From positions 1 through 34,542 of the IMG/VR virus record IMGVR_UViG_3300037634_005735: 34,542 nt of DNA, one strand, 5' to 3'. The notes beneath the pieces were generated by a model. It was given only the letters and a program-made list of their open reading frames with translations. It was not told the origin of the DNA and ran no database searches. Numbering within the stretch: position 1 is the stretch's first letter; the number at the start of each line of letters is the position of its first letter. Source of the DNA: a virus (taxonomy: Duplodnaviria > Caudoviricetes). Positions 10,846-30,076 of this stretch are shown here, piece by piece. Both the position numbers and the translations under genes were made by a program.

Positions 10846-10898
10846 TGTGCTGGGATTTTGGTCTTTATTTGATACTTTGCAAGACTTAAATTGCAATC
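10846..10898. promoter_or_regulatory. AT-rich divergent promoter region with two TTGCAA
   Basis: TTGCAA at 10877 and 10891; plus strand TAAATT(10887-10892)-N6-GTG(10899); minus strand TTGCAA-N16-CAAAAT before the scaffold ATG. Confidence 0.5.
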
Positions 10899-11588
10899 GT
10901 GGCCACTCCAGCAATCCCATCGGCGGAATTTAACTTCCCAAACCTGCTCTCTCCTCCGCCGGGACTGACGGTTGATGAGATGGATGTGGGGCAGGCATTT
11001 ACCCAAAATGCCAACTCCACAAACGAGGGAACAGACAAGCTAAGGTCCCTGTTGATATATTTCCACATGTTTGAAGAGGTGGAACTTGTTGATAATAATG
11101 GCTTTAAGAGGGTTTGCTTGGTTAGGAGAACGGGCAAAGAGGAGGCTCCCACCACATGCTCCTTGGGGACCTTGTTTACCGACCCCACCGATGGCGATAA
11201 GAGATACTTGCAACAGGGGACGGTGAATTCTCTTACCGCTCACACAGTAATTGGCGGGGAGGACACCAGCTTCCACCCAGAGACGAGCAGTTTGTTTGTC
11301 AGGCTAAACATAACAATGGAAACCGAGGGGGAAGGGGAAGATGCCTTTTTCACCGGGTTGTGGGCGGCCAATTCCCCCCCGGAACTGGTTCAAGACGTAT
11401 CCACCCCTATTGATGATGAGATTCGCTCCAGCAAGCCTTCGGACCTTAACATTTACGCCCCCTTGGGGAGATGGGACGAAAACACAAACGGGGATCTGGT
11501 TTGGAGCCCTGAAGGGTGCGGGGCGGTCACCTTCCAGATATGTCTGCTAAACGCCTATTGGGCCCAAGCCCATTACTTTAGGTCATAA
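10899..11588 (+). CDS. Hypothetical, probably structural (acidic, beta-rich) protein
   Basis: 229 aa with protein-like composition; no long minus-strand ORF covers this interval; TAATG coupling to the next gene. Confidence 0.7.
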   Translation: MATPAIPSAEFNFPNLLSPPPGLTVDEMDVGQAFTQNANSTNEGTDKLRSLLIYFHMFEEVELVDNNGFKRVCLVRRTGKEEAPTTCSLGTLFTDPTDGDKRYLQQGTVNSLTAHTVIGGEDTSFHPETSSLFVRLNITMETEGEGEDAFFTGLWAANSPPELVQDVSTPIDDEIRSSKPSDLNIYAPLGRWDENTNGDLVWSPEGCGAVTFQICLLNAYWAQAHYFRS

Positions 11589-12598: not shown

Positions 12599-12882
12599 GA
12601 GAGCTTGGCAGCCACTACGGCTCGCATGATCTTCCCTGATCTAGCCTCACTGTAGGCCCGGTATCCCAAGACCTCGTCGCAAGCCTTTATGACTCCCCTG
12701 TTTAGCTGGGTGGTCAACTGGTCACTATCCGGGTCGTTGACAATGGACTGCGCCTCGTCCCTCCTCTTTTGGATCATGGGAATAAAGTGGTCACTCCACC
12801 CTTCCTCCCTGCACATCCTCTCTACTCTCTCACCTACCTTCTGGGCGCGGTCATACTCTTGCTTCTCTTTGTCGATGCTCAT
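12595..12882 (-). CDS. Small helical post-portal protein
   Basis: 95 aa; ATGA overlap with the portal stop; W...R...RGVIKACDEVL pattern and position typical of podovirus post-portal genes. Confidence 0.7.
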   Translation of the reverse strand: MSIDKEKQEYDRAQKVGERVERMCREEGWSDHFIPMIQKRRDEAQSIVNDPDSDQLTTQLNRGVIKACDEVLGYRAYSEARSGKIMRAVVAAKLS

Positions 12883-15131
12883 ACTACAGGAGGCTGCTGT
12901 CCGGGCATATTATCCTGCGTGTTTATGGCCTGAGGATTTCCGCTCCCTCCGGAGGGAGTGCCTTGTGGGGGAATCTGGAAGCCGGGCTGGATAATCTCGT
13001 CCACATGGGAAACCTGCATTGCCTTTAGCATCTGACGGTAAAGCTGGGCGGTGCGAACCTGTAATTCTGGGGGGAGAGAATAAAACTCAATAACCTTGGC
13101 GCTGGCCTGCTGCGCCTGAACAAGCTCCTGCTCATTCTTGTATCTGGTCATCTCTAGGCGCACATCCATGTCCACCTGCTTATCGACGTTCTCTGGGCCG
13201 AATTGCAGCATTTGCGCCGCCTCGTCCTCTGTATACATGAATGCCTCCCGCACATCGAGATAGGCAAGGGTGTATACGCAGAACTGCTTGAGGAGGTCCT
13301 CTAGGCCATCTTGCAACTGGCTGAGGTAGATGGAGAACATCTCCTGACCGGATCTCTCGATATTCTTGACCCCGGTAGCCAGTTTGGCCGTATCCATCCC
13401 GAGCATGGCGGCATCGTTCACATGAGAAACTCCGCTCATGTTGATTGCAACCTGCATGAAGAACTCGATCTCCTTGTAGATTTCCCGGCCCTTAACGTCA
13501 TAGAGCGGGATGACCTTGAGGATGGTCTCTGGGTCGATGTTACCCTTGGGGGTGTATGTCCTGCCGCCATTAAGCTCCAAGTGGGGGTTCTCTTCTCCCT
13601 CCAGAGTAAGCTCAGGGTTCCAGAAGATGACATTCCCAGAGCGGGACTGAGAGTGGTTCCACCTGTTGACCAAGAGGTCCACTACTTCTTGCAAGGGCTG
13701 GAACACCTCCATGGTGCCTATCCCGTGCCAGCGCCCCTCTACCCGGTTTACCCGGGTGACATTAAACGGCCTGCGGCCATCAGGGGTCCGGTTTGCAACA
13801 TAGTCGTAGAACAAGGGCCTCCGGTTCTTCTTGTCCAGCATGATGACGATGTCCTCCTGAACGCCGTCTTCGTCCGCATCAAAATGGATGTAGACCTCAG
13901 CAATCTCCACGACTGGCTCTCCCTCTAGCCCCGTGTCCGTTTTCCTGTTGTCGTCTTCGGAGTTGACCTTGTCGTGCCCCGAGCTTTCCCCGAGTTCTGG
14001 CCTCTCCTTAGTCCCGAATGCTTTCCTGTTGTCGTCAATGCGAACAAGCTCTTGCAACGACTCGAAAATCTTGGTGGCCGTCTCCCTAGTGGTCTCACCC
14101 TCATTATCTAGGGCCGAAACATAAAGGGACGCGATTTCGATTGCTGGCTTGTCATACAGGTGGACGCATATGTCGGCCTCTCCAAGGCTTGGCGCGTCGA
14201 GGGGGGCTAAGAAGTCCTTGTAGTAAATAGGCTTGGACTCTGCCCCCCGATACTGGACCTTCTGCCTTGGGACAATCTGCACCTCAAACCTGAGCATTTC
14301 CGGGCTTTCAAGCCCCTCTGGAAGCTGTGTTTCGCCATCCCTAACCAGAATCCAAATGGGATCGCTTACCACCCCGGGGTCCTGCTCGCTCTGGGTCGCC
14401 ACTTGGGCCCACTGGTCATCCTCATAGATGTAGTCGGCATCTGCTGCCACAAAGGGAACACCCGCCGAGTCCACCGCGATAGAGGCCTCTTTGTTGAATT
14501 GGGTCCACTCTTGGCGGTAAATGGTTTTGGAGACCGTCTCCCCCCTGATGATAGCTCCCTCGACGGCGGCCATAATAGCCCCCTTGAGGTCGGCCTCCTT
14601 GGCCTTATACTTGCAATACTTGTCTGTTACGTCCGCAGGCTCTTCATCGCTTTTGCTCACCGGGTAGGCCCCGAACCATGGCTCGGTCCCAAGGAAGTAG
14701 CTAACGGCGCGGGAAATCTGTTGTTGGGCAATCCTCCTAGACAAGGGAACCGTGAGGTTGGATTCAGCGAAAATCCCCCCGACCAAGTATGCCCTCCAGT
14801 CGATCTGGTTATGGAAGGTCATCTCGTAAAGCTGCCTTTTGCCCATAAAGGACCCAGCGGCCTGCTTTACCGTGTCGTCGTGCCCCCTGCCATACCAGCT
14901 CGCTTGCGACGTTGACCCGCGACCAAGCTCATTCTCAAGGGTAGAGATCCTAGCCATGGCGTGAGTGATCAGGCGGTCCTCCTGCCGCGCAGTAAGTTGC
15001 AACGGGCTGCTAAAGACAACCTTGGGCTTCTCCTTTTCCCCGGCGTTCAGGGGTGGCTTAGGGGCGGTAATCACCTTCTCGGCAACCGCCTGAACTTGGC
15101 TTATGGCGCCAGATTGTCCTTCTTCACTCAT
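12879..15131 (-). CDS. Portal protein (P22-like podovirus type)
   Basis: 750 aa; RRPFNVTRVNRVEGRWHGIGTMEVFQPLQEVVDLLVN, DTAKLATGVKNI and a Q/P-rich C-terminus; upstream of scaffold and MCP. Confidence 0.85.
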   Translation of the reverse strand: MSEEGQSGAISQVQAVAEKVITAPKPPLNAGEKEKPKVVFSSPLQLTARQEDRLITHAMARISTLENELGRGSTSQASWYGRGHDDTVKQAAGSFMGKRQLYEMTFHNQIDWRAYLVGGIFAESNLTVPLSRRIAQQQISRAVSYFLGTEPWFGAYPVSKSDEEPADVTDKYCKYKAKEADLKGAIMAAVEGAIIRGETVSKTIYRQEWTQFNKEASIAVDSAGVPFVAADADYIYEDDQWAQVATQSEQDPGVVSDPIWILVRDGETQLPEGLESPEMLRFEVQIVPRQKVQYRGAESKPIYYKDFLAPLDAPSLGEADICVHLYDKPAIEIASLYVSALDNEGETTRETATKIFESLQELVRIDDNRKAFGTKERPELGESSGHDKVNSEDDNRKTDTGLEGEPVVEIAEVYIHFDADEDGVQEDIVIMLDKKNRRPLFYDYVANRTPDGRRPFNVTRVNRVEGRWHGIGTMEVFQPLQEVVDLLVNRWNHSQSRSGNVIFWNPELTLEGEENPHLELNGGRTYTPKGNIDPETILKVIPLYDVKGREIYKEIEFFMQVAINMSGVSHVNDAAMLGMDTAKLATGVKNIERSGQEMFSIYLSQLQDGLEDLLKQFCVYTLAYLDVREAFMYTEDEAAQMLQFGPENVDKQVDMDVRLEMTRYKNEQELVQAQQASAKVIEFYSLPPELQVRTAQLYRQMLKAMQVSHVDEIIQPGFQIPPQGTPSGGSGNPQAINTQDNMPGQQPPVV
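12943..12958. repeat. CCCTCCGGAGGG palindrome, copy 3
   Basis: CTCCCTCCGGAGGGAG, 16-bp perfect palindrome in the portal's disordered tail (TPSGGS). Confidence 0.9.
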
Positions 15132-18100
15132 CGCTTATCCTTGAGTTTTTTGTTGAATGTCTTTCTTGCCTCTAATTGGAAGTCGATGTTGCCGTAGGCG
15201 ATTCCTCTTGCCGTATCGCTGGCTCTCCTCCGGGCCTTCGAGATGTCGCCAGCAGTTCTAACGGAAATTTGCTCCTCTTGCCAGACCCTTTGATAGGCTC
15301 GTTGGAAGATGTCATATTGCAACGAAGTCATCTTGTGCTTCTGCTTGAGCCCGGTCGCCTCGTCAGTGTAGACGTATGCATTGCTGACACGGGAAGGCAT
15401 TATAAGGTCCTCCCTGTAGGGCTCCAACTTCCTCCCTCTGTTGATCATTTGGTCGTAATACTTGGGAGTGTAGGGCTGCTGCCTTGTAATCCACGAACCA
15501 AATCCCCGGGGCCTCTTGAGAAGGTCTCCATATGCGTCCCTTTGTGATCCGGGGGCAAATTTGTTTCTAGGCAGGTCTATGCCAAGCACCTTGCTGTCCA
15601 TGCTGGGATACATCTCGTAGAGAAGAAGTTTCCAGACGGGGTTGGCGTCTCCAAGAGAAAGCCTAGCATCGTATGTAAGGTTCCCATCCCTAATAGGCTG
15701 CCTGAACACGTTGGGGATTAGGAATGTCGCAAATTGCCTCGCGGCCCATTTCTCAGCAGAGATTTTGCCACTAGCTATGCCGAAGGCGTCATTCATCCCC
15801 CTCAGCGAAGTTTTGTCTGTTAGCTGGCCAAAAAGAGTGTCCGTGAATAGTTCGTATCCGGCTTCAGCTATGTTGCGCTCTTTTCTGCCAAGCCTCTTAA
15901 ATGTCTTCACCCAGTCTACTGTGGTCCCTAGGGTTATGGCCAACGGATCAATTCGCCCATAGTCGAAGGTGACTCCCTCCTCCCCCTCCGGAGTAACCAT
16001 CTCCCCTATCGGGATAGCGCCAAACAGCAATGTCGCATCTCTTTTTATCCGAATCTTAAACGGACCCAGCCCGGCCCTGATGGCCGCCTCCCTCTCTGCT
16101 GGAGCGCCCTTTGTGAACTTGGGCATGGAGCCAGTAATCAGAATTGGCTTCTCCTCGTCATCTTCATCCCCTTCAAACATCGCCAAGATTGCTGCTGCCA
16201 AAACGGTCGAAAGAAGCTGCTGGGATAATTTCCTGATGGATTCTGCCGCCTTGGGGTCTGGGTTTCCTCGGTTTTTGGCTAGATACTGACTGAGCTTAAA
16301 TGAGTGGTAGGCTACTGAGAAGGGGTTGGGGATTCTCGCATACCCCTCTCGGACAAGGTTGGCCAACACCCTTGCAAATGGAATTATTGTAATGCGGGTC
16401 ATCCCGAGAGCGATTCGCAAGGAGTCCATCTTCGCAACCTCGGTAAGTCTTATCAGGCCGGATTCTGTGACCCTTGAAACTTCCTTGGATGCCCTCAGGC
16501 CCTTCTCTGCGTTTTTGACTTTCTGATCAATTGCGTTAATTGCATAAGCAACCGCATCTCCCACAGACGCCTGTGCCCCTGTAAGATCAGATGGGAGGTC
16601 CTTGGTGAAGACAGAAACATTGGCTTCTTCTGCCGCGAGCGTCCAACTAGAGGAGCCGGGGACGGTCATCTCCCTGTGGATGAACTGCTCTAGTTCAGCG
16701 CCCTCAAGGCCTTTTCCAGTGCCCACCCTATAGGCGATTCCGCCCACATGGGAGCCTGCGACAACGAACCTCATAAACTCGTCCACTCCCATGTTGAACC
16801 TAAGGATGTTTCTCCCGAAACCGCCAAAGCTGACCTTCCTTTTAGCGCCCTTTTCCCCCAAGGCTCTTCTGGTCAGGGCTGGTCTTTCCCACTGTTTCCC
16901 AAACATTTTTTCTAGGCCCTGATCGACATAGTCGAGCAAGTGGCCCATTTGGTAGCCACGCACCTCTTCGTGGGTTTCCCCCCTGTATTCCCCTCCCTCA
17001 ACGCCGCCTTTTACGAAGGAGTTGAAATAAGCTGTCTCGGTGTCGTAAGCGAGGAATCCTTGGTATATCGCCATGCCAAGATAGGTCTTCATCCCCCTTG
17101 CGATATACTTGAACTCTCCCATCTTGGCCGCCTCCGGGTGCTTTGCCAACTTGTTCAAAAGAGACTCTGCCGCCTGCTCCCCAATCATCCTGTATCCCGC
17201 GAAGGGGACGGACATAAGGTTCACAAGAACAGTTTTGGCCGAGAACACGTTCCCATACCAAGACCCGAACGTCCGCGTCACATAGTCAATGTCAATGTCA
17301 TCAAGGGATCTGAAGGCGGCCTGAACGTGTATTGGGTTGTTTACATTAAATCCTTTTTGGGCGAGGGCCTTCACGGACGCCTTAAATGATCGGTCTAGGA
17401 CCTTATTGACATCCTGATCGGTTCCGGGCTCCGCCTTTCCGGACAGGGGGGTGCCGCTTGCAAAGGACCCCATGTTGTTCTCGTTATATCCGCGCTTAAC
17501 CAGCTCTCTCACCTTGGGCTCCAGAAGACCTCTGAACTTCTCCATGGCCCTTCTTTGCCCGGCCTTAGAGACGCCAGTCGCCGCCTCAATGGCCGCTGCA
17601 TCAGCCCCCTCTCTGGCCATTTGCACGACCTTCCGGAATTTGGGGGTTAGCTCTCCAAGGGCCGCCTGATCGGTGGTCGTCCCAATTGCGACCCCGTCAT
17701 TGGAGGAGTTGAATATTTCCTCTACAGACATGCCGTCACGACTAAGGACCCGCTTGGATTGCTCCAGCCTGTTGCGTTGCAACTTTTTCAGGTCCTCATC
17801 AAAGGCCGCTTTGCTGGACTTGGGGACACTATACCCCGCGTCCTTCTTTCCCCCGTGCTTCTTTCTTAGGGCCTGCATCTGACCCGGGGGCACCGTATTC
17901 ATCGCCATGCCAAGTGCATACGCCGCTCTTTGTGCCGGGGTCTGGAACGGGTCCCTCATCGAGGTCATCGTTCTTGCAATTTCGCCTCGCAGCTCTTGCA
18001 AGGCGTGGGCAAAGGCCATCACCTTGTCAATTTCAGCTTGGTTTCCAGATGTCAGTGCTTTCTGGAAGTCATCTGCCAGAACCTGCATCGAGGCTATTTG

Positions 18101-21100
18101 GAACTCAGGAGTTCCGGGCTGCCCCAGCTTTTCCGCCGACTCAAAGACCCTCCTCCTGATCTCGTCGTCGCCCTGTGACTTTCTCTCTGCGGAGGCCCCA
18201 GTCTTCCACTGAGGGAAGTTCTGCGCGATGAATGTCTCTTCGTAGATTTCCTGAGAAACGTCATATGCGTTCCGGACCTCTGGGGTTTCCCCCACCTTGG
18301 CCCTAGAGGGGTCGCCCTTGACGACTTTCTCCCCAGCAGCATTCCTAGAGTCTCTTTTCTTGAACAACTTGAGGCGCTCCCGAAGGGTCTTGCCTCTTTT
18401 GTCCATTCTCCCCTTGGCCCTTTCCGCGCCCTCCTCGGAGTCTTTTGGCCCCCTCTGGAGGGTGGGTCCTACAGTCCCCCCTCCCGTTTCCTGATCGAGG
18501 TCATCTTTCCCCTTATCCGAGACATCTGGCTTTCTAGCGCGATCATCTCCCTTTCTGCTTCTTTGCGGCCTGTCAATTCTAAGGCCGTATCCTTTAGCAC
18601 CTTGCCCAGTAATAAATGCCTCCGCCTCTTCTTCATCAAAGTCTTGTTCAAACCTTTCATAGTAGTCGTGTAGTGTGTCTGTTTTCTCTTTTGATTTCCT
18701 TCTCAGGACATCAATATCGTTGGTTCCCAAAATGTCTGCCACCGTTGCAAACCCTTGCAAGGAGGTTGCAAGTCCACCAGCAGAAAACGTGAGCCCCCTT
18801 GCAAGCTCCTGCCCCTCGCTGTTGATGTCTTGATGCAGCCCTTCGTGCAAGGCGACCCCCCCCACCTCGTCCAGAAACAACTGGTATAGGCCTATGTGAT
18901 AGTTTTCCTCCACGCCTCCAGCTACCTCAATGATCTCCTCCATGCTATGGGTGTCTCGTACATGCCACAATGTTGACAGCGGATCATGGTAAATGACGGT
19001 AGGGGGGGCATTCATCGGCTGGTCAGCCTTGGTCTGCTCGTCTGTAATATACGATATAGGAAGGTGAAGTCCGTATGCGTTGGTCCCAACTGCAAACCCG
19101 GCAAATCCCGCCCTGCCAAATTGCTCGTTACTTTGGTATCTCGTCGCGAGATACTTCAGGACCCTTCCTTGGACCTGATAGTAATCCTCTGCAATATCGG
19201 CAACCAGTGGGTCAGTCGCGAACTCTTCAACAAGTTCGGAGTCAAGAGTCCCCGACAAATCTAGAAAATGAAACTCGCCGGGAACGGCTGCGTCTCTGGG
19301 ATCTTGCCCCCACTCCTTGACGGCGGCGTACCGAGCAAACTTTTCCGCCTCCACGCCATACTGCTCTTCATTGCGCCACGGCCTGCGAATAAGAGCAGTG
19401 TCCCCTCTGCGGTCTATCCACTTCTGACGCCTTTGGATGTAAGCCATTTGGGACAGCTTGCCCATGAATAGCTCGATTTCGTCTTTGACCTCTTTCGAGA
19501 CAGAGTTTCTGTCGAGGCTAAACGGGTAACCTGCCTCCCCGGCGTCAACTTTCGATCTTATATTGATCGCAATGCCACTAACTGGGACAAGGGCCTCCTG
19601 ATCCACGCCAACAGCAAAATTTTCTTCAAATTGATAGATTGTTCTATTGAGTATTTTGCCCGTAACCGCGTTGCTTTGATGCTTCTTGTCCCCGTCCTTC
19701 GCGAGAATTTCTATCTCAAACAGGTCCGTTTCAATGTTCCCGTCCTCAATCACGACCCAGTCTTCGTCAGGATAACTCGCTTCGTGCGCCGCGTATCCAC
19801 TGGGCTTCCATCTCGCTATGCCAGCGAAATCACTAATCGATGGCCCCTTTAGCGCCCCGCTCCAATCTGTCTCAATTTGTTTGATGATTGGGCCGCCGGG
19901 ACCGGGGAAGTTCTCCTGAATACGTTCTTTATGTGCCTCGATTCCAGCAATGACGTATTTCCTTGTTATCTCTAGTGCCGCCTCTGGCGAGTAGTCATCA
20001 AACCAACTCCTCGGGGAAAGGCCGGGGTCTATGGGGGTGCTCGCGGGAGAAGTCGCCCCTTGTTCTACATACCCGGCGTCCTCGTATTCCCTCCCGACCC
20101 TGAGTGTGGGAGTTAGCTTTGCCGCGCCCTCTACAAAGGCAGTGGCGTTAGTCCAACCCCTCCCCCACTTTTCGTTAGCCTTGTCATTCGCATTCGGGAA
20201 TCCCAAAACATATGCCGTCCCCGTGTCGCCACCCTCAGGGGCATGGCTCACGGTCAACTTCATGCCCGGAAGGATTTCTGTTTCGTTCCCGGGCTCCAGC
20301 ATATTTTCTGGAGTTTCTATTCTCCCACGGGTTAAGTAATCCTCGTATGCGCCGGGGCCTAGTTCCAGTTGCGTCAGAATCCTCTCGCCTTTTTCGTTTT
20401 CGTTGATCGTGGACACCCTGACATTGTTGGGGCCCATCAGGAAAACGAGCTTTGCAATCCCAAACCCGCCGCCTTCTCCAACGCCCTTGCCCGAAACGAA
20501 GGCAGGGAGGAATTTCGTCCATACAAGTTCAGGAGACATTCCCACCCCATTGTCGGACATCGCGAATAGATTCCCTGCATAGGCGTCTCCATTCTTGTCC
20601 ACCAATTGCACCTTGCCACTGTCTTGCCACGCGAACCCTCCCTGATTGACCAAAATCGTGGGGTGGTAGGCCTCAAACCCTTTGGGGAAATCTCCAAAGT
20701 CAGCACTTGCCTTCCAGTTTCTGACCATGTTTTCCACAAGGACCTCGTCTTGAATACCCGCCTTCAGAGCATCTGCGCGAACAAACTCTTCTATCCTATC
20801 GTGCAACTTGGCCTCTTCTGCGGCCTTCTTCTTCATGACGGCATCCACAGAGTTCTGGAAAAGCTCTTTGCCCAAAGTCCCAGTGGGGTCGGTGCCATAC
20901 ATATTGGCGCCAACCAGCTTCAACATTCTCTTTATGTCGAAGGTGGAGGACTCCTTCAGGTCCGCTGGCTTGTCTGCGTCAGCGTCATCAATTCCTCGCT
21001 GCAATGCCGGGGCATTGATGCGCGGCACGATCTTCCTGAAGTCAGCCTCCAGTTGCTTGTCTAGTTTTCGGGACTTCAGGAATTCCCCCAGATGGGTGGG

Positions 21101-24100
21101 CCACGTTAATTGGTCATGAAAGCGCCCCCAGTGACGCCCGATCATGAGATCAAATGCAACGGCCTTCCCGTTCTCTATTGTGAAATTATTCGACCCTGCG
21201 TCACCAATGCTCAGATCCTCTGAGGGATCGTAAAAATTATATGCGTCAATAGGGATCATCCCTATATCGATCATATGCAATACCAGTTTCCCCTGCTTGA
21301 GGACCTTGCCCTTGCGCTCTAGGCTTTCATAGTCGGGAGCTACGGGCCCCAACACATCCGAGTCTTCTTGCGAGTATGGCTGCCTGACATGTGCATGGAG
21401 CTTTCCGTTCTTAACTATGAACCCAAGAAGCTCGTATGTCGCTTCGGGGAAATAGTGGTTGTGCCATATAAGCCTATTGAAATACTCCAAGAAGGAATCG
21501 TCGCCATGGAATACCTTCTCTACATACTTCCCCTTGTGGATAACCCAGTTCTCGTATCCACCCATCCCCACCGCTGCATGGTCGTGGAAAAATCGAGCCG
21601 AATCGTTGATGAGGTCATTATCCTTTGCCCATCGCTTCAGGAGCTTCCCTTCGACCTTTTTGACCCCCGGGTAGGCATACATTCTGGTTTTGGGGTCAAC
21701 CCCCGCCGCCCTCAGGACCCCATTAAACGCTTCGTCTGTTTCGTAAAGTCCTCTAAGGTGGGCGTAGGCTTCTTCGCCCGACTTGCCGATAGTTCCGAGG
21801 CTCTTTTCAAGGACTTCTTGTGACGGTCCCGCCTCCGTTTGGCGAATTCCCGTGATGGTGAGTTCCTTCTCGCGCTGAAGGGTGGGGGTGCTTTGTCCTC
21901 GTCCTCGTCCTCGGGGCCCCTTAGTTCTTGGAGCGCGACCCGTGGCAGGGACCAGTCTAGTCCCATCTTTTTGAGGCTTCTCTGCACCCTTTTTAGTTTC
22001 TGGATCTCGCTTTCCGACAAACCATTCAGGATAGAGGGATCGACTTCTCCCGGTGATGATTTTTCTTGCTCTGGCATTGCTGTTATTCTGCCACGTTTTG
22101 GTGGCCTCAGCTAGATGATTCGGTTTTTTTTCTCCGCTGGGATGGATAAGGCGGATTCCCTCCCAAGCGATTGACTGCATTTGCCGTGGCTGGATACCCC
22201 TGCGGCGAGCGGCCTCTCTGTATGCATCAGCATACAAATGATACAGCCCCGAAACTCCCTCAACTGCCGAGCCTGCCGCTCCCTTGCCGCCGAAGTTGTG
22301 TTCCACCGCAAGTGCTGTTATCCCCCACGGCATCAAGTGCGCTGCCGCCACCGCGTGAGTGTCCATGGTGACATCTCCCATCGGGCTATTAGGCGCGACT
22401 ATGTTGTTAAAGAAACTCCGGACCTTGTGTTCGGCTCCGAGAATCCTGTTAAGGTTTTCAAGGCTCCCATTCTTTAGAATTGAAATTGCATCTGCAAGTT
22501 GGGCGGCAGACCCCCAGCCATGCGTCGAGGGGGTTCCTTCTTCCCCGGATCGCAATTGAGCTTGTGTGGGGCTGTTTCTTTGGACATGCAAAATATCCCC
22601 CTCCGGGGTCATCACATCGTATTCGGCCCCCCAGTGGTGATCAGCCAGCAATCTCAGGGCCCACGCTTGAGCTTCCGCGTCTATTTTCCCTAGCTGGTTG
22701 ATGGTGTAACCATAAAGGCCCTCCATGATCACACGCCTATCATCCCTCTTCATCTCATCAAGCCTCCTGTTATAGGCTTGCCGCAGTGATGTTTGCCTCG
22801 GCGTCTCGCCATCACGCACTTTCTTCCTTGCCGACGGTGCCGCCTGCGCCTTGGCGATCATTCTCTCTATGGCTTCCCCATGAACCTTGGGGTCTATCGC
22901 CTCGTTCCGGTTATTCGCCCAAATATCAATAACCTTCTTGGCCTGTGCCGCGTTCTTGAACCAGTTATTCTTCGGGGAAAGAGATGCAATGACGCCAGCA
23001 ACCTGAACCTTGGTGTATCCGTATCTCTTTGCTAGGCGATTTGCAAGTTTGCTGGCCCCGTCATACCAATGCGATGCCCTTTCTCTTACTTCCGTTGGCA
23101 GGGCGTCATGAACGGCCAAGATATTTTCGACCATCCACTCAATTGCCTTTTCTCTCTTTCTGTGCGGATTCTTCTCTGACCGAATGCTTTGCGGGAGATG
23201 ATCGTAATCAAACGACTTCATGTGCGCCGTCAGGAGTTCCTCGCTCACCGACGCTATGCCAATGTTACTGCTGGCGTCCCGGCGCTTTCTGGAGGTCGTC
23301 GCCGTTTTCCTTGCAGTCCCAACGCGGAACCTGTCATTGCTTGCATTGGGCTTGGATGCGGCTGATTTCTGGAGGGAGAGACCGGATGTCAGCCTGCCTC
23401 TGATGGACTCCCACTCTGCCCCAAGATCAATTCCTGCGTAGAACTTGCCATCATGCTCAATAACCTTGGCGGAATTTCCATATATGGGCTTGTAGAGGTT
23501 TTCTACCAGCTTCTCGGCGGCGGCGCGTTTCTTGAATCCGGTTTGAGGCCTGCCATTAGGAAGCGCGAGGACCAAGTCCCTTTCGTCTACCGCAATGGCT
23601 CCATTGAGAAGATTTCTGTGTAACCGGGATACTAGCTCGGCATCAGCCCCCAAGGAATTCCCAACGATTTCGTTGTCTGCAAATAGCTCGGCAAAGGCTA
23701 CTCTCGCCTCGTCAGTGAGCTTATACCCTCCCTCCTTGGTTACGTCCTTATAGATGGCGTAAATGGCTGGGGCTAAGGTTGAAAAAGCTCCCTGTAGACC
23801 CGGTTCCGGAGACTTGCCTTCCTGCAAGAAGGCCTCAAGCCCTTCTGCCATTGTCTCGATAGGCCTTGAGGGATTGACCTCCTCTGCCCATGCGTTCATT
23901 TTGGCGGCATTTTGGGGCCCGATAGCCGCATCTAGAAGACTTCCTCTGGACGCGGGGTCCTGAATCTTCTGCAACACATGAACGAACTCATGCAGAAGAG
24001 TGGACGCGTCGCCTTTTTCAGAAAGGCCAATGTAAACCCTAGAGCCAGCGGGGTCTGCTTCGGCTATCCCCTTTACTTCAAGTTCGCTCTTGGCCCTTGT

Positions 24101-27100
24101 CTTCCGAACATATTCAGCATCTGCTTTTTTGTATTCGGTTTTTTGATCCTCTGTCGCCTTCTCTATCTTCTGGTCTACGTCTACCAGCTCCTTTTTGAGT
24201 TTGGCCACTTTGGGGTCAACTCCCCCCTCCCAGACAAGGGCAAGGCCCTCCGTTACAATTGCCGATATCTCTTCAGTTATCTGTTCTTTACGAGATACAA
24301 GCTGTTGCAATTTTTGTATCCCCTTTTCAGAAGGCCCTTTTCCGACCAAAGCCAAGAATCTGTCTTTGGCTCTTCGGAGTGCTGGGATGACTGCGGGGTT
24401 TCCATCTGCCACATCGGCGGTAATGGAGGTAACCATCCTACTGGCTGCCAAAGCCCTACGAGCGCGTTCCGTGAAGGTCGCGTTTTCCAGAACGGAGCTA
24501 AGGCTTTCATTTATATTTGTAACTTTTCCCAAGTAAGACTTAACCGCAGATTCAAGGGCGCCCGATCTTGCTTCTTCCCCGGCTTTAGAGGCTTTCACCC
24601 ACTCATCCACAAGGGAGGTAAACTCTCCGCCCACTTTTACTACGTTTACAAAGGCGTAGATAGTCTCTTTTGAGAGATCCGTCTTTGTTGACACTGCCGC
24701 GACCATCCCCTTGATGGCTTTCAGGACCATGTCCAGCTCGTCAACTGACAGGCGTCCCCTTACGACCTGCGAAGCGTACGCGGTTCTAGTTGCTTCATTA
24801 ACCGTGTCCTCATACTTGTGCGCGTTTTTCTCTCTCGCCTCTGCGCGAGTTGCAAAGGTTTGAGTTCGTCCCCCGGGGAGGGTTACTTCGTATTGGCCTC
24901 CCCGTAGCCTTCTAATATTTGGAGGAAGAACCACATCTTTGCGGTCTGTGATGCGGCTTTCTGGAACGGCCACGCCGAGATCGGCAAGAACTCTATCGCT
25001 TGTGTTCTCGGCAATGAGGGCCATCGCCATGCGCTCATAAAATTTCAACTCCTTCTCCAGCGTGGGGTTGCCAGCAATGATAGTTCTGATCCGGTCTAGG
25101 AACCTCCTGAGGTATTTGAGGAACAGGCCAAGGGGGCCATTTCTTACCGCTCCTCTGGCCGCCTTGCTTCTCCCCCCCTGCTTGATGGCCTGCCGCATCG
25201 TGGCCACTAATAGTGGGTCCGTGATTAGGTTTTCTACAAAGTAGCGAAGCACATCGGCATCAGAGGCGTCCTCGCCTTTCAGCGTCGCGCTCCTAGCCCT
25301 TTTGGCCATTAACTCTTGGGCCTTAGGCGGGAAGAAGTCAAAAAGGGCTTTGGCCTCTGCGTCAGAGAGAACCCCTTTGGTGCCCAACTTGGCAATGATT
25401 TCAATTTCTATCCTTCTCTGCTTCTGGTCAGACATTCCGTCCACCTTGGAGCTGAGAATTACATCTCCATCTTCCGTTATGACGTAATTTTTCCCTTTGG
25501 GAACGGGAGACTCCTCGGTCTCGGTTATAACCTTCCTAACTAGGCCAAACCCTTGCAACGCGGAGGCTACGTCCCTGCTCTCCTTTGGAGTCTTGGCGGC
25601 TGGCTTTTTCTTGGCTGGAGCGGTTTGGGTTGTTGGGGCGTCTCTGCCAATCTCCTCCACTGAGGACAAAGTCTCAGGGGCATTTATTTTGGCCGCCGCA
25701 GCATCCCCGGCCTCTGACTTGGTTTCCGCCTCTACTACAAACGTCTTGGTCTTCCCTCTGCCAACATTGATTGTGGCCCTCCACTTCTTCTTCCCTCCGG
25801 AGGGAGCGGCCTCTTCACCCGCGACAGGTTTTTCCCTAACGACAAATTCCCCGTCTTTTACTTCGACAACCTCGTAGAGGTCCTTGTCGATCTTGGGAGT
25901 CTTCCCACCGGAGAGCGTTCTTAGCCGAGTGTCTGCTTTTTGCCTAGTGTCATACGGCTCGCCTTTCGCATTTTTTATGACCTGTCTCCCTCCCTCAACG
26001 GAGACGCCCTTGACCTTGCTGGGGTCAGCAAGGCCCTCCCGCGCTTTCGGCGCTGCCTTTTCAGGCTTGGCCGCTTCCTCAGGCTTGGCCGCTTCCTCAG
26101 GCTTGGCCGCTTCCTCGGGCTTGGCTTCTTTGGGGGCAGGTTCGGCTGCTTCCTCCTTAGGTTCGGCTACCTTGGGTGCAGGTTCGGCTGCTTTGGGCGC
26201 AGGGGCCTCCCTGACTTGCTTGAGTCTGGCTTCCTCATTTAGAGATATTAAAAATTTGGCCGCATCGGGATCTAGCTGCCTAACCGTCCTTATCCCGTCC
26301 TCTGTAATTACAAGCTGGCCGTCTACCTCTCTAATAGCAGGATTCCCCTGCTCGTTTGTCGCTTTGTTTACCGCCCTGAACTCGGTTGAGGTTAGCTCGC
26401 TATCGTCATTAACCTTGCCGCTTGCAATTTTAAGCAAGCCCCGAGCCTGATGCACTTTGTCGATTTGGGCTTGCGCTTCCTCGACAAGGTTTTCGTTCCC
26501 TAGCTCAGAATAGTAGTTCCTGCTTCCAGCGGCGGATTCCTCTATGTTTTTGAGATTCTTGTGAGCCTCGATTGCAACTTGCAAGTTTTTGGCCGCAACG
26601 CCACCATCATTAGAGCCTTTCCCGGGGTTGAAGTTTATTAGCTCCAGCCCGGCCTCAACCTCCCCTTGGGTATATTCTGTTTTCCCAAAGACATCGCCAA
26701 GTGCCGCACGGGCAGTCTTGGGGTCAGAGAAGTTTTCTGCCGTCATCCCGGTTTGCCCGGCAGACATGGTCGCCCCCATGAATCCTCCAAGGACCAAACC
26801 AGCAACGCCAGCGTATGCTGATCGACCAAGGACCTCGGAAAACGAAGCGTCATCAAAGGATAGACTAGAGATGAGCTGATCGGAGAATTCTTCTGCGCCC
26901 TCGTAGAGGGAAGCGCCTGCGACGGACTTGACTGCTGATATGAACTTTTCTTTTCTTTTTGTCCCCTCGGCTCCAATGGCTCTCCAGAAATCTCTAACGG
27001 TCCACTGGTTTACTACTTTTGGTGCGAAAACCTTTTGAATGCCCGTAGTCCCAAAAGCCCTGACCACGCTCGCGGTAATCACCCCTGTAACCATCGCCCT

Positions 27101-30076
27101 GCCCCGCACCGCTGGGCTGGAAGCAAGTTCATCTTCTTCCTCTTCGGTTAGAATCCTCCCAAGCTTCTCTTGGAGCTTTGACTTGGACTCTTCATAGTAT
27201 AGTCCCCATGATAGCCCCGCAGACTGGAACCCGGCTCCGGCAGCCGACCCGCGAATGCCCCATTTTGCAGCAGCTTTATCTAGGTGTTTAACTTTCTCCT
27301 CGGCGCTCTTTGCCTTGCTTAGGGCTCCTTTAGTGACACTGCGATTGATGGACCTTTCGATCCCCTTGGTCATTGCCTTTCTTCCCACTGTTGCCCCCGC
27401 TCCGCCGGGGACAAGCGAGAACAAGAGGGACGGTCCTTCCTCAAGCAGGATGTCCGAGGCCTTGGAAAGGAGCGCAAAAGGGCCCCATGTCATTTTCGTC
27501 CCCGCGAAATCTCTGCCTTCTCTCTGCTCGGCCAAATTGTCAGATGCCCATATTGTCGCATCTTTTGCTCCGGGGATTGTAAGGACTGCGCCTATTCCTG
27601 TAAGAGTTTGAACGAACTTCCCGCCCCCCATCATAAGGCTTCTAAAGGGCCTTGATGCCGTTGCAACGAATCCGTCTCTCTTGCCTTCATACTTGGCCAC
27701 ATAGGCGGCCATCTGGTCATTGAAGCTGGGGATCTTCTCCCGGGCCTTTGCTTGCATGTCACGGAGGCTTTCCATGCCCTCCTCAAGGTTTCGGGCGCTC
27801 TCCCTGAGATACGAAGCGTCTTCCCCTGACTTCTCCTTTGTGGAAATCTCATCCCTCAGCTCTGCCAACTTCTCGCCTCTTTCTTGCAAGCCAGACTCGT
27901 AGCTTTTCCAGTCATAATAAAATTTCTTCCGGAACTCGGCTGGGGTAGGAGTCCCGCCGGGGACGGCGTATGCGGCTGAAGCGCCGTCATATATGCTGCT
28001 TGCATATGTAGTTAAAAGCCTTTGATAGGTTTGCTCGGAAAGATAGTGGTCCCTAATAACTTGCGGGGCCTTGGAGGCGTTGATAGCCGCCTTGTATCCA
28101 TCCGCATCGAACAGGTTTGTGTCCGGATGGAACAGCATGGTTCCATCGGACCTAAGCCTTATAGCCTCTTGGTCTGCCTTCTTTGGCCACGGCTTGTGGG
28201 TCTTCTCGACGTCCTCAAGGGCCTGAAACCTCTCCTGCTCCGAATACCCCTTTTCGTCGAACCACTCGTTGATCCTTTTGTGCTGCCCGGGCTGGTCGCC
28301 GTATTGCTTCCCACGCTTCGCTGACTTTACAGCAATGGCACCGCGCCGCATTAGGGCATCGAGCATACCACCAGCCGTATATGCTAAATTCTCGTAGAAA
28401 GGGCCAGAAGTAACGTCCGTGCCTGTTTCGTGCCGGAAGGACAATGGCAGCCCCATTTCGGCTTCGCCTTTGTTTAACCGGACACCAAAGCCATGCTTGC
28501 CAATTGCCTTTAGGGACCCCGGGCTGGAGCCAGCCATCTCATACAGCTCGGTTGAAAGCTCCGCAAAATTCTCGGAATTTTTCGCAAAGGCCTGCTGAAC
28601 TTGATCAGATATGTTGCGCTCCAGCTCTAATACCCTTTGCAGGATATACTCCTTTTTATTTTCGGGAGTATTAGTCAGCTTGCTAATGCGGTCATCTCCC
28701 GGGACCCCCTCGTCTGCTGTATGCCCCGCAGGGCCTTGCAGGAAATATTCAATGTCATCAGGAATCGCCTTATAGCGGCCCCTGATGAGCTTCTTCATCT
28801 CTTCGTAAGATTCGTGGATCTCTTTGTGGTAAGAGGGAGCGATGGTCTCCCCCCTGCCTTGGGTTCCCAATAATCCGGTTACCTCTTTTTGGCTCCTCGA
28901 TATCCCAGATATGGTAGACTCAATGGCCTCTTTTTGTTTCTTCTCCCACTCCTCGTGACGGGCCTTGGTGAAGCCCCGCATGTCCTCAATGGCATCACCG
29001 ATAATCGGCCTAAGGAGATCCAAGGACTCGCTCCTTGCCTTTACCTCTTTGACTCCTTTGTCGTATTCAAACCTCTCCCTCAGGTAGTCCTTCGTGGCCT
29101 CTGCCCACTCTCCCCTGAGGGTAACGCGCCCTCTCTTAATCTGATCCGGTGTCGCCCCGGATTGCAACCACTCCATGAACCCCTCTTCAAGTTCTTGGAC
29201 GTTTTTGTGATATGCACCAGCGGCCTTCTTCTCGTCCTCAGAGACGGATTTGGCTCGCTCATTATTAATGCCTACCTCTCGGTTATAGGCGTCAATAAAC
29301 GCGCTTGTTCCCTTGGGGTCCTCCTCAGCTTCTGGGGCCTCCCATGTTCTTCGCCCGTAGGTGCCGGGTCGGTCTCTTGCAAGATCCTCGGGGAAGCCCT
29401 CTGAGATTCTCCCCTGCCTCTTGATCTGTTGGTCGATTTCGGCTATTTCCGAAACAGACTTATCATCAGCATCTAGAGCTGCCCTTTGCGCGGCAATAGA
29501 CTGCTGTTTTTGCTCCAGAAAACTTTGCGCCGCTTCATCGCCGTTTTCAGCTCGTTCACGAAGAGACTCAAGGTAGTTTAGGTCTTTATCTAAATCCTCT
29601 TCAGCCGATCTTCTTTTGGCCGGGGACATCGGGGCCCTAGCCGGGTCTTTCCTGATGGCATCTATCTGGTCACCCAGACCCGAAATCTTGGCCTTGGCGT
29701 TTGCCCTGTCGGACTTTTCCCTTTGGAGGTCTTTGAGGGTCTGCCTGTGATCAGCGACCTGCTCGTCAGAAAGGGATAGCCTCAATCTGCCATCTTCGTC
29801 CTCTAGAAGATAATCAGAAAGCCCCTCATCCGAGGCTCTGGTTCTGGTGATCTTGTTCTGCCTAGCAACCCTATCGTTCTGGATTCTTTCAACTTCGGCA
29901 TCCCTAGCCCGTTGCTCTCTCTCTTTCTTCTCCTTCCTCAGTTCTTGCTCTCTATTTAGAGCGTCGAGTCTCCTCTGGTGCCTAGCTACACCAGAGCGAA
30001 GTTCGGATAAGCCATCAGAGTCCCCATAAGGATTCTGGATAGGCGCATCCTTATAAGGGTCCTCTATATCAGCCAT
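15128..30076 (-). CDS. Giant polyvalent internal virion / ejected protein (4982 aa)
   Basis: N-terminal coiled coil; Gly/Ala hydrophobic segments (~aa 810-1110); P/A/E/K linker; HEFVH (aa 2029); HhH-GPD-like domain; polyvalent kinase; GHKL ATPase plus HEGLH; C-terminal ejection-protein-like region (PFARVLAN...LITGSMP...YGRIDP...DKTSLRG). Stop overlaps the portal ATG. Confidence 0.85.
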   Translation of the reverse strand: MADIEDPYKDAPIQNPYGDSDGLSELRSGVARHQRRLDALNREQELRKEKKEREQRARDAEVERIQNDRVARQNKITRTRASDEGLSDYLLEDEDGRLRLSLSDEQVADHRQTLKDLQREKSDRANAKAKISGLGDQIDAIRKDPARAPMSPAKRRSAEEDLDKDLNYLESLRERAENGDEAAQSFLEQKQQSIAAQRAALDADDKSVSEIAEIDQQIKRQGRISEGFPEDLARDRPGTYGRRTWEAPEAEEDPKGTSAFIDAYNREVGINNERAKSVSEDEKKAAGAYHKNVQELEEGFMEWLQSGATPDQIKRGRVTLRGEWAEATKDYLRERFEYDKGVKEVKARSESLDLLRPIIGDAIEDMRGFTKARHEEWEKKQKEAIESTISGISRSQKEVTGLLGTQGRGETIAPSYHKEIHESYEEMKKLIRGRYKAIPDDIEYFLQGPAGHTADEGVPGDDRISKLTNTPENKKEYILQRVLELERNISDQVQQAFAKNSENFAELSTELYEMAGSSPGSLKAIGKHGFGVRLNKGEAEMGLPLSFRHETGTDVTSGPFYENLAYTAGGMLDALMRRGAIAVKSAKRGKQYGDQPGQHKRINEWFDEKGYSEQERFQALEDVEKTHKPWPKKADQEAIRLRSDGTMLFHPDTNLFDADGYKAAINASKAPQVIRDHYLSEQTYQRLLTTYASSIYDGASAAYAVPGGTPTPAEFRKKFYYDWKSYESGLQERGEKLAELRDEISTKEKSGEDASYLRESARNLEEGMESLRDMQAKAREKIPSFNDQMAAYVAKYEGKRDGFVATASRPFRSLMMGGGKFVQTLTGIGAVLTIPGAKDATIWASDNLAEQREGRDFAGTKMTWGPFALLSKASDILLEEGPSLLFSLVPGGAGATVGRKAMTKGIERSINRSVTKGALSKAKSAEEKVKHLDKAAAKWGIRGSAAGAGFQSAGLSWGLYYEESKSKLQEKLGRILTEEEEDELASSPAVRGRAMVTGVITASVVRAFGTTGIQKVFAPKVVNQWTVRDFWRAIGAEGTKRKEKFISAVKSVAGASLYEGAEEFSDQLISSLSFDDASFSEVLGRSAYAGVAGLVLGGFMGATMSAGQTGMTAENFSDPKTARAALGDVFGKTEYTQGEVEAGLELINFNPGKGSNDGGVAAKNLQVAIEAHKNLKNIEESAAGSRNYYSELGNENLVEEAQAQIDKVHQARGLLKIASGKVNDDSELTSTEFRAVNKATNEQGNPAIREVDGQLVITEDGIRTVRQLDPDAAKFLISLNEEARLKQVREAPAPKAAEPAPKVAEPKEEAAEPAPKEAKPEEAAKPEEAAKPEEAAKPEKAAPKAREGLADPSKVKGVSVEGGRQVIKNAKGEPYDTRQKADTRLRTLSGGKTPKIDKDLYEVVEVKDGEFVVREKPVAGEEAAPSGGKKKWRATINVGRGKTKTFVVEAETKSEAGDAAAAKINAPETLSSVEEIGRDAPTTQTAPAKKKPAAKTPKESRDVASALQGFGLVRKVITETEESPVPKGKNYVITEDGDVILSSKVDGMSDQKQRRIEIEIIAKLGTKGVLSDAEAKALFDFFPPKAQELMAKRARSATLKGEDASDADVLRYFVENLITDPLLVATMRQAIKQGGRSKAARGAVRNGPLGLFLKYLRRFLDRIRTIIAGNPTLEKELKFYERMAMALIAENTSDRVLADLGVAVPESRITDRKDVVLPPNIRRLRGGQYEVTLPGGRTQTFATRAEAREKNAHKYEDTVNEATRTAYASQVVRGRLSVDELDMVLKAIKGMVAAVSTKTDLSKETIYAFVNVVKVGGEFTSLVDEWVKASKAGEEARSGALESAVKSYLGKVTNINESLSSVLENATFTERARRALAASRMVTSITADVADGNPAVIPALRRAKDRFLALVGKGPSEKGIQKLQQLVSRKEQITEEISAIVTEGLALVWEGGVDPKVAKLKKELVDVDQKIEKATEDQKTEYKKADAEYVRKTRAKSELEVKGIAEADPAGSRVYIGLSEKGDASTLLHEFVHVLQKIQDPASRGSLLDAAIGPQNAAKMNAWAEEVNPSRPIETMAEGLEAFLQEGKSPEPGLQGAFSTLAPAIYAIYKDVTKEGGYKLTDEARVAFAELFADNEIVGNSLGADAELVSRLHRNLLNGAIAVDERDLVLALPNGRPQTGFKKRAAAEKLVENLYKPIYGNSAKVIEHDGKFYAGIDLGAEWESIRGRLTSGLSLQKSAASKPNASNDRFRVGTARKTATTSRKRRDASSNIGIASVSEELLTAHMKSFDYDHLPQSIRSEKNPHRKREKAIEWMVENILAVHDALPTEVRERASHWYDGASKLANRLAKRYGYTKVQVAGVIASLSPKNNWFKNAAQAKKVIDIWANNRNEAIDPKVHGEAIERMIAKAQAAPSARKKVRDGETPRQTSLRQAYNRRLDEMKRDDRRVIMEGLYGYTINQLGKIDAEAQAWALRLLADHHWGAEYDVMTPEGDILHVQRNSPTQAQLRSGEEGTPSTHGWGSAAQLADAISILKNGSLENLNRILGAEHKVRSFFNNIVAPNSPMGDVTMDTHAVAAAHLMPWGITALAVEHNFGGKGAAGSAVEGVSGLYHLYADAYREAARRRGIQPRQMQSIAWEGIRLIHPSGEKKPNHLAEATKTWQNNSNARARKIITGRSRSLYPEWFVGKRDPETKKGAEKPQKDGTRLVPATGRAPRTKGPRGRGRGQSTPTLQREKELTITGIRQTEAGPSQEVLEKSLGTIGKSGEEAYAHLRGLYETDEAFNGVLRAAGVDPKTRMYAYPGVKKVEGKLLKRWAKDNDLINDSARFFHDHAAVGMGGYENWVIHKGKYVEKVFHGDDSFLEYFNRLIWHNHYFPEATYELLGFIVKNGKLHAHVRQPYSQEDSDVLGPVAPDYESLERKGKVLKQGKLVLHMIDIGMIPIDAYNFYDPSEDLSIGDAGSNNFTIENGKAVAFDLMIGRHWGRFHDQLTWPTHLGEFLKSRKLDKQLEADFRKIVPRINAPALQRGIDDADADKPADLKESSTFDIKRMLKLVGANMYGTDPTGTLGKELFQNSVDAVMKKKAAEEAKLHDRIEEFVRADALKAGIQDEVLVENMVRNWKASADFGDFPKGFEAYHPTILVNQGGFAWQDSGKVQLVDKNGDAYAGNLFAMSDNGVGMSPELVWTKFLPAFVSGKGVGEGGGFGIAKLVFLMGPNNVRVSTINENEKGERILTQLELGPGAYEDYLTRGRIETPENMLEPGNETEILPGMKLTVSHAPEGGDTGTAYVLGFPNANDKANEKWGRGWTNATAFVEGAAKLTPTLRVGREYEDAGYVEQGATSPASTPIDPGLSPRSWFDDYSPEAALEITRKYVIAGIEAHKERIQENFPGPGGPIIKQIETDWSGALKGPSISDFAGIARWKPSGYAAHEASYPDEDWVVIEDGNIETDLFEIEILAKDGDKKHQSNAVTGKILNRTIYQFEENFAVGVDQEALVPVSGIAINIRSKVDAGEAGYPFSLDRNSVSKEVKDEIELFMGKLSQMAYIQRRQKWIDRRGDTALIRRPWRNEEQYGVEAEKFARYAAVKEWGQDPRDAAVPGEFHFLDLSGTLDSELVEEFATDPLVADIAEDYYQVQGRVLKYLATRYQSNEQFGRAGFAGFAVGTNAYGLHLPISYITDEQTKADQPMNAPPTVIYHDPLSTLWHVRDTHSMEEIIEVAGGVEENYHIGLYQLFLDEVGGVALHEGLHQDINSEGQELARGLTFSAGGLATSLQGFATVADILGTNDIDVLRRKSKEKTDTLHDYYERFEQDFDEEEAEAFITGQGAKGYGLRIDRPQRSRKGDDRARKPDVSDKGKDDLDQETGGGTVGPTLQRGPKDSEEGAERAKGRMDKRGKTLRERLKLFKKRDSRNAAGEKVVKGDPSRAKVGETPEVRNAYDVSQEIYEETFIAQNFPQWKTGASAERKSQGDDEIRRRVFESAEKLGQPGTPEFQIASMQVLADDFQKALTSGNQAEIDKVMAFAHALQELRGEIARTMTSMRDPFQTPAQRAAYALGMAMNTVPPGQMQALRKKHGGKKDAGYSVPKSSKAAFDEDLKKLQRNRLEQSKRVLSRDGMSVEEIFNSSNDGVAIGTTTDQAALGELTPKFRKVVQMAREGADAAAIEAATGVSKAGQRRAMEKFRGLLEPKVRELVKRGYNENNMGSFASGTPLSGKAEPGTDQDVNKVLDRSFKASVKALAQKGFNVNNPIHVQAAFRSLDDIDIDYVTRTFGSWYGNVFSAKTVLVNLMSVPFAGYRMIGEQAAESLLNKLAKHPEAAKMGEFKYIARGMKTYLGMAIYQGFLAYDTETAYFNSFVKGGVEGGEYRGETHEEVRGYQMGHLLDYVDQGLEKMFGKQWERPALTRRALGEKGAKRKVSFGGFGRNILRFNMGVDEFMRFVVAGSHVGGIAYRVGTGKGLEGAELEQFIHREMTVPGSSSWTLAAEEANVSVFTKDLPSDLTGAQASVGDAVAYAINAIDQKVKNAEKGLRASKEVSRVTESGLIRLTEVAKMDSLRIALGMTRITIIPFARVLANLVREGYARIPNPFSVAYHSFKLSQYLAKNRGNPDPKAAESIRKLSQQLLSTVLAAAILAMFEGDEDDEEKPILITGSMPKFTKGAPAEREAAIRAGLGPFKIRIKRDATLLFGAIPIGEMVTPEGEEGVTFDYGRIDPLAITLGTTVDWVKTFKRLGRKERNIAEAGYELFTDTLFGQLTDKTSLRGMNDAFGIASGKISAEKWAARQFATFLIPNVFRQPIRDGNLTYDARLSLGDANPVWKLLLYEMYPSMDSKVLGIDLPRNKFAPGSQRDAYGDLLKRPRGFGSWITRQQPYTPKYYDQMINRGRKLEPYREDLIMPSRVSNAYVYTDEATGLKQKHKMTSLQYDIFQRAYQRVWQEEQISVRTAGDISKARRRASDTARGIAYGNIDFQLEARKTFNKKLKDKR
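18469..18660 (-). CDS. Candidate nested +1-frame gene (63 aa, helical) in the linker after the GHKL cassette
   Basis: VLKDTALELTGRKEAEREMIALESQMSRIRGKMTSIRKREGGL reads as an amphipathic helix where the host frame is R/D/K/G low-complexity; the stop lies 2 nt before the PTLQR codons. Confidence 0.45.
   Translation of the reverse strand: MKGLNKTLMKKRRRHLLLGKVLKDTALELTGRKEAEREMIALESQMSRIRGKMTSIRKREGGL
18800..20950 (-). other. GHKL (Hsp90/MORC-like) ATPase module with downstream HExxH, within the giant protein
   Basis: MYGTDP..KELFQNSVDA (E aa 3071), DNGVGM (D aa 3175), GGFGIAK, GT; later YPFSLDR; HEGLH at 18833-18847. Confidence 0.8.
21130..21620 (-). other. Polyvalent-protein Ser/Thr/Tyr kinase domain within the giant protein
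   Basis: GMGGYENWV..VEKV..YFNRLIWHNHYFPEATYELLGF..VRQPY..IGDAGSNNF..AFD. Confidence 0.75.
21712..22077 (-). CDS. Candidate nested +1-frame gene in the linker after the HhH-GPD-like cassette
   Basis: MPEQEKSSPGEVDPSILNGLSESEIQKLKRVQRSLKKMGLDWSLPRVALQELRGPEDEDED is protein-like up to the PTLQR junction; CAATG start context as for MCP and scaffold; TGgCAGAAT 7 nt upstream. Confidence 0.55.
   Translation of the reverse strand: MPEQEKSSPGEVDPSILNGLSESEIQKLKRVQRSLKKMGLDWSLPRVALQELRGPEDEDEDKAPPPFSARRNSPSREFAKRRRDRHKKSLKRASELSASRAKKPTPTLEDFTKQTKRLMGS
22150..23160 (-). other. HhH-GPD DNA-glycosylase-like (DUF7178-type) domain within the giant protein
   Basis: WYDGA..VAGVIASLSPKNNWFKN..KVRSFFNNI..VTMDTHA..YADAYREAA..PRQMQSIAW. 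Confidence 0.6.
25792..25805. repeat. CCCTCCGGAGGG palindrome, copy 4
   Basis: TCCCTCCGGAGGGA encoding APSGG in an interdomain linker. Confidence 0.9.
26061..26200 (-). repeat. Coding tandem repeats: 3 x 18 bp (KPEEAA) plus imperfect AEPAPK units
   Basis: tcaggcttggccgcttcc at 26061, 26079 and 26097. Confidence 0.9.

Follow-up and report, generated by a model that had tools for sequence, protein, structure and literature searches.

A glutamine-ending word at the cassette joints of a giant phage polyvalent protein with a zincin-like domain

Phage polyvalent proteins were defined as a class by Iyer et al. (2017; PMC5512222), where autoproteolytic release by a zincin-like metallopeptidase (MPTase) was proposed and processing of P1 DdrB is described. 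We examined a 34,542-nucleotide stretch of tailed-phage DNA (IMG/VR record IMGVR_UViG_3300037634_005735, positions 1 to 34,542; "the window"), which encodes a giant protein of this known class (4,982 aa, a single open reading frame (ORF) at 15128..30076 (-)), and report that its enzymatic cassettes are joined at a short junction word, [P/I/V/L]-x-[L/F/M]-Q, at which cassettes are gained, lost and reordered among relatives. Like the proteins of PMC5512222, it is a multi-enzyme chain encoded within a virion gene block, with a Kinase-PolyVal domain here, ART-PolyVal domains in relatives, and an HExxH motif with a downstream Glu; the exchange seen here also parallels the cassette recombination suggested in that paper for Verrucomicrobium kinase loci. 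In contrast, the consulted passages of PMC5512222 give no recognition motif, cut sites or lineage-specific words, and GHKL occurs zero times in them. No description of junction words in polyvalent proteins was found in the open-licence literature, from which subscription papers are largely missing; the class and its proposed self-processing were already known.

Cultured relatives are Bbp10 of Bordetella phage BPP-1, gp32 of Cobetia phage Carin-1 and gp16 of Pseudomonas phage AF, which share with the window protein both a peptidase profile (E 5e-29 for the window protein) and Gln-ending words. The Bbp10 domain seeded the CLCA_X family, sister to the self-cleaving CLCA proteases (PMC3650047), and Bbp10 is listed as a homologue of T7 internal virion protein D (PMC4819975). 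In the three cultured phages the cassettes precede the peptidase, which the word flanks: it lies 29-37 residues upstream of HExxH and where cassettes apparently begin (assigned by eye). Gln words are at 903, 1492 and 1605 in gp32 and at 668 and 970 in gp16. In the window protein the cassettes follow the peptidase, the part ahead of the peptidase has no word, and the C-terminal region does not match those of the Bbp10-type proteins. The crAss-like phages likewise have a virion polyprotein, a fused RNA polymerase, for which cleavage by the zincin gp65 has been proposed (10.1101/2020.03.07.982082); that chain consists of three fixed subunits, whereas the window protein carries variable effector cassettes, and no RNA polymerase was found in it.

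Chain architecture and the junction word

The chain runs in the order of a constant N-terminal part, a zincin-like domain, repeats of cassette plus junction word, and a constant C-terminal part. Several unrelated enzymatic domains (DUF7178, Kinase-PolyVal, GHKL and the zincin-like domain) are thus held in one phage chain; Kinase-PolyVal is typical of the class, as is ART-PolyVal, which is above cut-off in relatives L008, L010 and L011; and the gene lies among virion genes, with the portal gene adjoining and capsid and adaptor next, which supports the first-pass reading of the product as a polyvalent protein.

The zincin-like domain (aa ~2001-2138; 23663..24076 (-)) contains HEFVH at aa 2029 (23992-23978 (-)), and the residues H2029, E2030, H2033, E2074 and E2081 were invariant in 23/23 aligned sequences, so that HExxH is joined by a conserved Glu on a later helix and the zincin motif proposed earlier is borne out. 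These catalytic and metal residues stay invariant in the peptidase family down to about 21% identity. The structure model was of low confidence (pLDDT 60) and showed strands followed by the HExxH helix; fold searches with it gave no clear structural match. The sequence here, HEFVHVLQK, departs from the CLCA_X consensus HExxHxxxD, and the domain, while it is related to CLCA_X via the Bbp10 profile, is not classed as a member.

Upon re-reading the sequence, the four junction motifs, HEFVH and the quoted codons were all found as the first-pass annotation had given them, except that 23978-23992 covers HEFVH alone and not the longer STLLHEFVH. Junction 1 (LSLQK, aa 2233, Q2236; 23366..23380 (-)) opens cassette 1, a DUF7178 unit of 498 aa and 55 kDa (21875..23368 (-); 92.8 bits). 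Its model recovered DNA glycosylases in 18/20 top rows; the best Z was a middling 7.6, with an rmsd of 4.0 over 183 residues, and Foldseek gave an E of 0.55. The HhH-GPD-like label from the first-pass annotation is a reasonable but not firm one. An Arg/Gly-rich tail just before junction 2 (~21887-21960 (-)) was kept in 5/5 aligned DUF7178 cassettes, and may represent a nucleic-acid-binding tail. Junction 2 (PTLQR, aa 2731, Q2734; 21872..21886 (-)) is followed by cassette 2, a Kinase-PolyVal domain of 292 aa and 33 kDa (20999..21874 (-)), where the kinase label is sustained by Pfam (49.5 bits; cut-off, 27).

Junction 3 (PALQR, aa 3023, Q3026; 20996..21010 (-)) precedes cassette 3, a GHKL ATPase of HATPase_c_3 type (848 aa, 93 kDa; 18455..20998 (-)). 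Pfam matched it weakly (E 0.06), Atlas placed it at 0.97 to HATPase_c_3 clusters, and the N, G1 and G2 boxes (ELFQNSVDA, DNGVGM, GGGFG) were present and invariant or nearly so in 3/3 sequences, so this label also stands. Viral proteins of 385-631 aa that stand alone resemble the DUF7178 unit and the GHKL unit. A second HExxH (HEGLH, with E3745; 18847-18833 (-)) lies near the end of the GHKL cassette; it is kept in L004, L008, L025 and L030, and the GHKL unit of P0003 has an echo of it. This region could be a module of GHKL plus metal site, and is an alternative candidate for a cutter. Junction 4 (PTLQR, aa 3871, Q3874; 18452..18466 (-)) leads into the conserved C-terminal region (1,108 aa, 123 kDa; 15131..18454 (-)). 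This region matched nothing in Pfam, PHROG or NCBIfam and no PDB sequence, and PDB sequence searches with the peptidase, DUF7178 and GHKL alignments similarly gave no significant relevant match. The "C-terminal ejection domain" of the earlier labeling therefore has no family behind it; the region is likely the structural or ejection part because of its gene context.

Within the window protein P[TA]LQR occurred 3 times compared to 0.007 in shuffles, the pattern having been picked post hoc, and a shuffled copy of the protein contains 8.6 four-letter gapped words each seen three times. LQ[RK] occurs 8 times, 4 of them outside the junctions. A motif repeated within one protein could be chance, and the significance of the word rests on the relatives.

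Giant relatives at 33-91% identity were obtained in scans with two queries, peptidase and C-terminal region, and 35 junctions from 7 proteins were chosen by eye from homology plus motif. At these, position -3 was P in 13, I in 10, V in 7, L in 3 and another residue in 2; position -1 was L in 21, F in 11 and M in 3; and position 0 was Q in 32 and S in 3. The residue following varied, being S in 10, R in 7, K in 5, G in 4, Q in 3 and another in 6. The conserved signal is therefore [P/I/V/L]-x-[L/F/M]-Q; LQ[RK], proposed at first as the signal, is spelled at just 8/35 junctions and was rejected. The variable regions of 8 proteins (L032 included) contained 40 word matches compared to 18.5 when shuffled, and 0/300 shuffles reached 40. 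Two anchors independent of the motif were also employed: downstream of GK[FY]YA the word was found within 40 residues in 7/7 proteins, and at the C-terminal anchor 8 proteins showed the Q word in 5, IQLS in 2 and a degenerate form in 1 (L025). The junction code is real.

The word is where relatives gain and lose cassettes, as had been predicted for LQR, and where the order of cassettes changes; their number runs from none in P0004 (aa 2160-2200, a single word) to seven in P0016 (aa 396-1885). In L004 and L008 the kinase is separated from GHKL by two added cassettes (i.e., at junction 3), one of them ART-PolyVal and the other unnamed, each terminated by a word; L018, L019, L024 and L026 have different cassettes in different orders; and the DUF7178 cassette, first in the window protein, is fifth in L019. 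P0016 was found later and took no part in defining the word; from its peptidase to its C-terminal region, 8 joints read N-[LAT]-Q (9 in total compared to 1.5 in shuffles, a pattern read post hoc), and matches to known cassettes start or stop at several of these. Codons at shared junction residues were identical in 94/196 comparisons where 74 were expected from codon usage; there is some shared ancestry, but selection is on the peptide, and the protein-level conservation claimed at the outset is upheld. Duplicated flanks of about 40 aa were seen in L018. Stretches of similar length are duplicated around ART-type cassettes in L010 (aa 2850-2875, 3080-3135 and 3300-3335), which suggests that cassettes were duplicated or recombined there recently.

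The word in the wider family and in other lineages

The peptidase profile matched 4,763 proteins, and the counts for the wider family use the best 150. Among these, [LFY]Q peaked 31-40 residues upstream of HExxH, where the count was 42 while most other bins had 4-18, and a broader Gln-ending word was seen 267 times compared to 130 in shuffled sequence. In 16 scanned proteins Pfam cassettes often stop just ahead of a word. ART-PolyVal of P0032 (1130-1285) sits between words at 1107 and 1297, and the same domain ends directly before a word in P0032, P0151, P0123, P0057, P0008 and P0069.

Other lineages were sampled via DUF7178 and not via the peptidase (best 120 of 507), and their junctions carry other words: N[YF]SI, RF[MI]P, [ST]FSL and R[FY]S[PA]. 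All dialects have in common an alternating hydrophobic pattern of the kind typical of a beta strand. The ART cassette tail ends ILYQ, INLQ, INYS, IRFM or ISFS depending upon the host protein; it ends in Q in 5/7 rows where the host has a window-type peptidase (one of the remaining rows being S and one a false match) and in 0/18 other rows. The end of this cassette changes to match the host protein, and therefore the word is read at the protein level. Q words were enriched only in the class with the window-type peptidase (293 compared to 177), and this covariation of word with peptidase type suggests that each protein encodes its own reader.

Cutting, docking and other explanations

The chain is probably cut at the word. 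Whether the cutting would be done by the zincin within the chain seems to us evenly balanced; reading and cutting of [P/I/V/L]-x-[L/F/M]-Q by this domain is nevertheless the mechanism we prefer, the joint variation of word and peptidase state suggesting that the zincin domain would be the reader. Cutting would free the glycosylase-like (55 kDa), kinase (33 kDa) and GHKL (93 kDa) enzymes, possibly for roles in host takeover or anti-defence, along with a 123 kDa tail, and would follow the likely packaging and injection of the giant protein, to which gene context and the listing of relatives as internal virion proteins both point. A new cassette would need only a word at its end to work, and cassettes could be exchanged freely because that word suffices. 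The scissile bond would lie either after Gln or before Leu/Phe: 3C-type viral proteases cut after Gln, and zincins often prefer to cut before Leu/Phe. The sites of RNA-virus 3C and 3C-like proteases have hydrophobic-x-Leu/Phe-Gln at polyprotein joints; these enzymes are cysteine proteases of another fold, and the likeness to the junction word would be at most convergent. A prediction of the complex formed by peptidase domain, Zn and junction-4 peptide scored 0.00, which is no answer, neither for nor against.

A number of observations weigh against self-cleavage by the zincin. The 35 junctions that define the word were selected by eye; L032 (2915-15715) has an intact peptidase and several cassettes, yet no clear word; the last joint of L025 is degenerate, and S replaces Q in 3/6 joints of L018. 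Within the wider family, [LFY]Q was upstream of just 64/126 peptidase sites, compared to 30 and 36 in controls, and a motif-blind test of alignment ends in 137 proteins gave a modest, noisy peak (43-47 compared to ~28 at ends), where a control word likewise peaked at starts. The covariation counts come from a set without dereplication, in which related proteins have word and peptidase type in common. The N4 virion RNA polymerase (vRNAP), which has an HExxH (PMC13434306), is packaged uncut with that domain (PMC5512222). A further contrast comes from 25 distant giants with 88 N[YF]S[IL] joints (1.7 expected), in which the domain at the zincin position is altered: RDFSQ, RDVAQ or REFAQ replaces HExxH in 13, EExxH is present in 11, and 1 is truncated. 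This domain still aligned to the zincin (hhalign 82.8%, E 9e-6), and 1/25 has an HExxH elsewhere. The N[YF]SI giants without HExxH (the P0159 family; RDFSQ, REFAQ, EEIHH), with P0159 of the RDFSQ type and P0168 of the EEIHH type, are found at L036 (10001-19069), L040, L053, L067, L069 and L070. No HExxH was found in ORFs of at least 150 aa at 6 of 37 loci (26-29 kb of 34-40 kb contigs). A canonical zincin in the chain is thus not needed for junction words to persist, which argues against obligatory self-cleavage. Genes for an integrase, an exonuclease and a Bet-like annealing protein are also present at L036, and one of its tail genes has a PHROG "peptidase" match.

These altered domains bear upon the possibility that the word is a docking strand, where a zincin-fold domain (active or not) or an ejection conduit binds the joints to pack, pace or thread a chain that stays whole. 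The words persist, with Ser of the N[YF]S[IL] word switching between AGC and TCC codons, where the zincin has lost HExxH wholly or partly; the strand-like alternation of every dialect would suit binding; and the peptidase region of N4 vRNAP is needed for encapsidation although the protein is uncut (PMC5512222). Docking alone is nonetheless somewhat unlikely, since the catalytic and metal residues are held invariant throughout the zincin's own family, as noted above, and the word in the cultured relatives directly precedes the peptidase, as release would predict. The lineage without HExxH would still need a reader, and this could be another protease, either a host enzyme of periplasm or cytoplasm or the product of a separate phage gene, that cuts at the words while the zincin targets a host protein or the cell wall; the second HExxH in the GHKL cassette is a candidate, and the matching contig of 43,988 bases extends beyond the window by about 9 kb, which were covered in part. 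We consider this unlikely: no protease family was matched among the 22 other window ORFs scanned, the capsid has no word, and the word tracks peptidase type between proteins, which is hard to square with a single host enzyme.

It is improbable that the word is a footprint of DNA exchange, i.e., a short homology used and homogenized by recombination without any reader. Identical codons are somewhat above expectation (60/98 compared to 48, in addition to the 94/196 given above), and the duplicated flanks of L018 and the annealing protein and exonuclease of a distant relative would fit with such exchange; but about half of the shared residues differ in codon, positions -3, -1 and 0 are held alone while their neighbors vary, and P0004 retains one word without any cassette. 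As a sole cause this is largely refuted. A chance repeat in a long protein, for which the number of thrice-seen gapped words in a shuffled copy might speak, has hardly any likelihood left and is refuted by the relatives, where the word is conserved and falls at homology breakpoints.

Genomic setting and meaning of the word

The minus strand of the window carries a podovirus-type structural block of giant ORF, portal, scaffold-like ORF, capsid and adaptor. The giant gene is upstream of, and adjoins, the portal gene (12879-15131 (-); Pfam SU10_portal, E 4e-13). An acidic ORF of 447 aa (9577-10920 (-)), scaffold-like by its position between the portal region and capsid, had no family match, and the capsid gene is at 7986-9518 (-) (PHROG 334, E 4e-10). 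The junction word was rejected as a head-maturation signal: there is none in the capsid, and one doubtful match lies near the uncertain start of the scaffold. Two ORFs of 229 and 336 aa are on the opposite strand inside the block (10899-12598 (+)), with neither a Pfam nor a PHROG match. GC skew flips sign at ~31000, the border between the minus-strand structural block and plus-strand genes, which include a helix-turn-helix protein at 31973-32281. A unit of ~21 codons is present in 2-3 copies near the window start (881-1198), and a linker of the giant protein that is rich in Pro, Ala, Glu and Lys (~26050-26200 (-)) contains three copies of KPEEAA. No prophage relatives were found in GTDB genomes.

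Processing by a zincin has been proposed since 2017 without a testable site, and the word supplies exact predicted ends and fragment sizes. It points to Carin-1 and AF as cultured, harmless phages for study, and the lineage with an altered zincin but intact words offers a sharp contrast between cutting and docking. The word is also a rule by which the giant genes of phages can be divided into individual candidate effectors, many of them unnamed. We tentatively suggest, as something rather short of probable, a general plug-in system, in which each giant ejection protein of tailed phages would pair a reader of zincin fold with a matching four-residue word of its own (xLFQ, PxLQ, NYSI, RFMP and others); incoming cassettes would be licensed by the word, and the reader would cut in some lineages and be a non-catalytic docking module in others. 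Cutting at the word, if true, would mean that a polyprotein logic in the style of RNA viruses operates in DNA phages.

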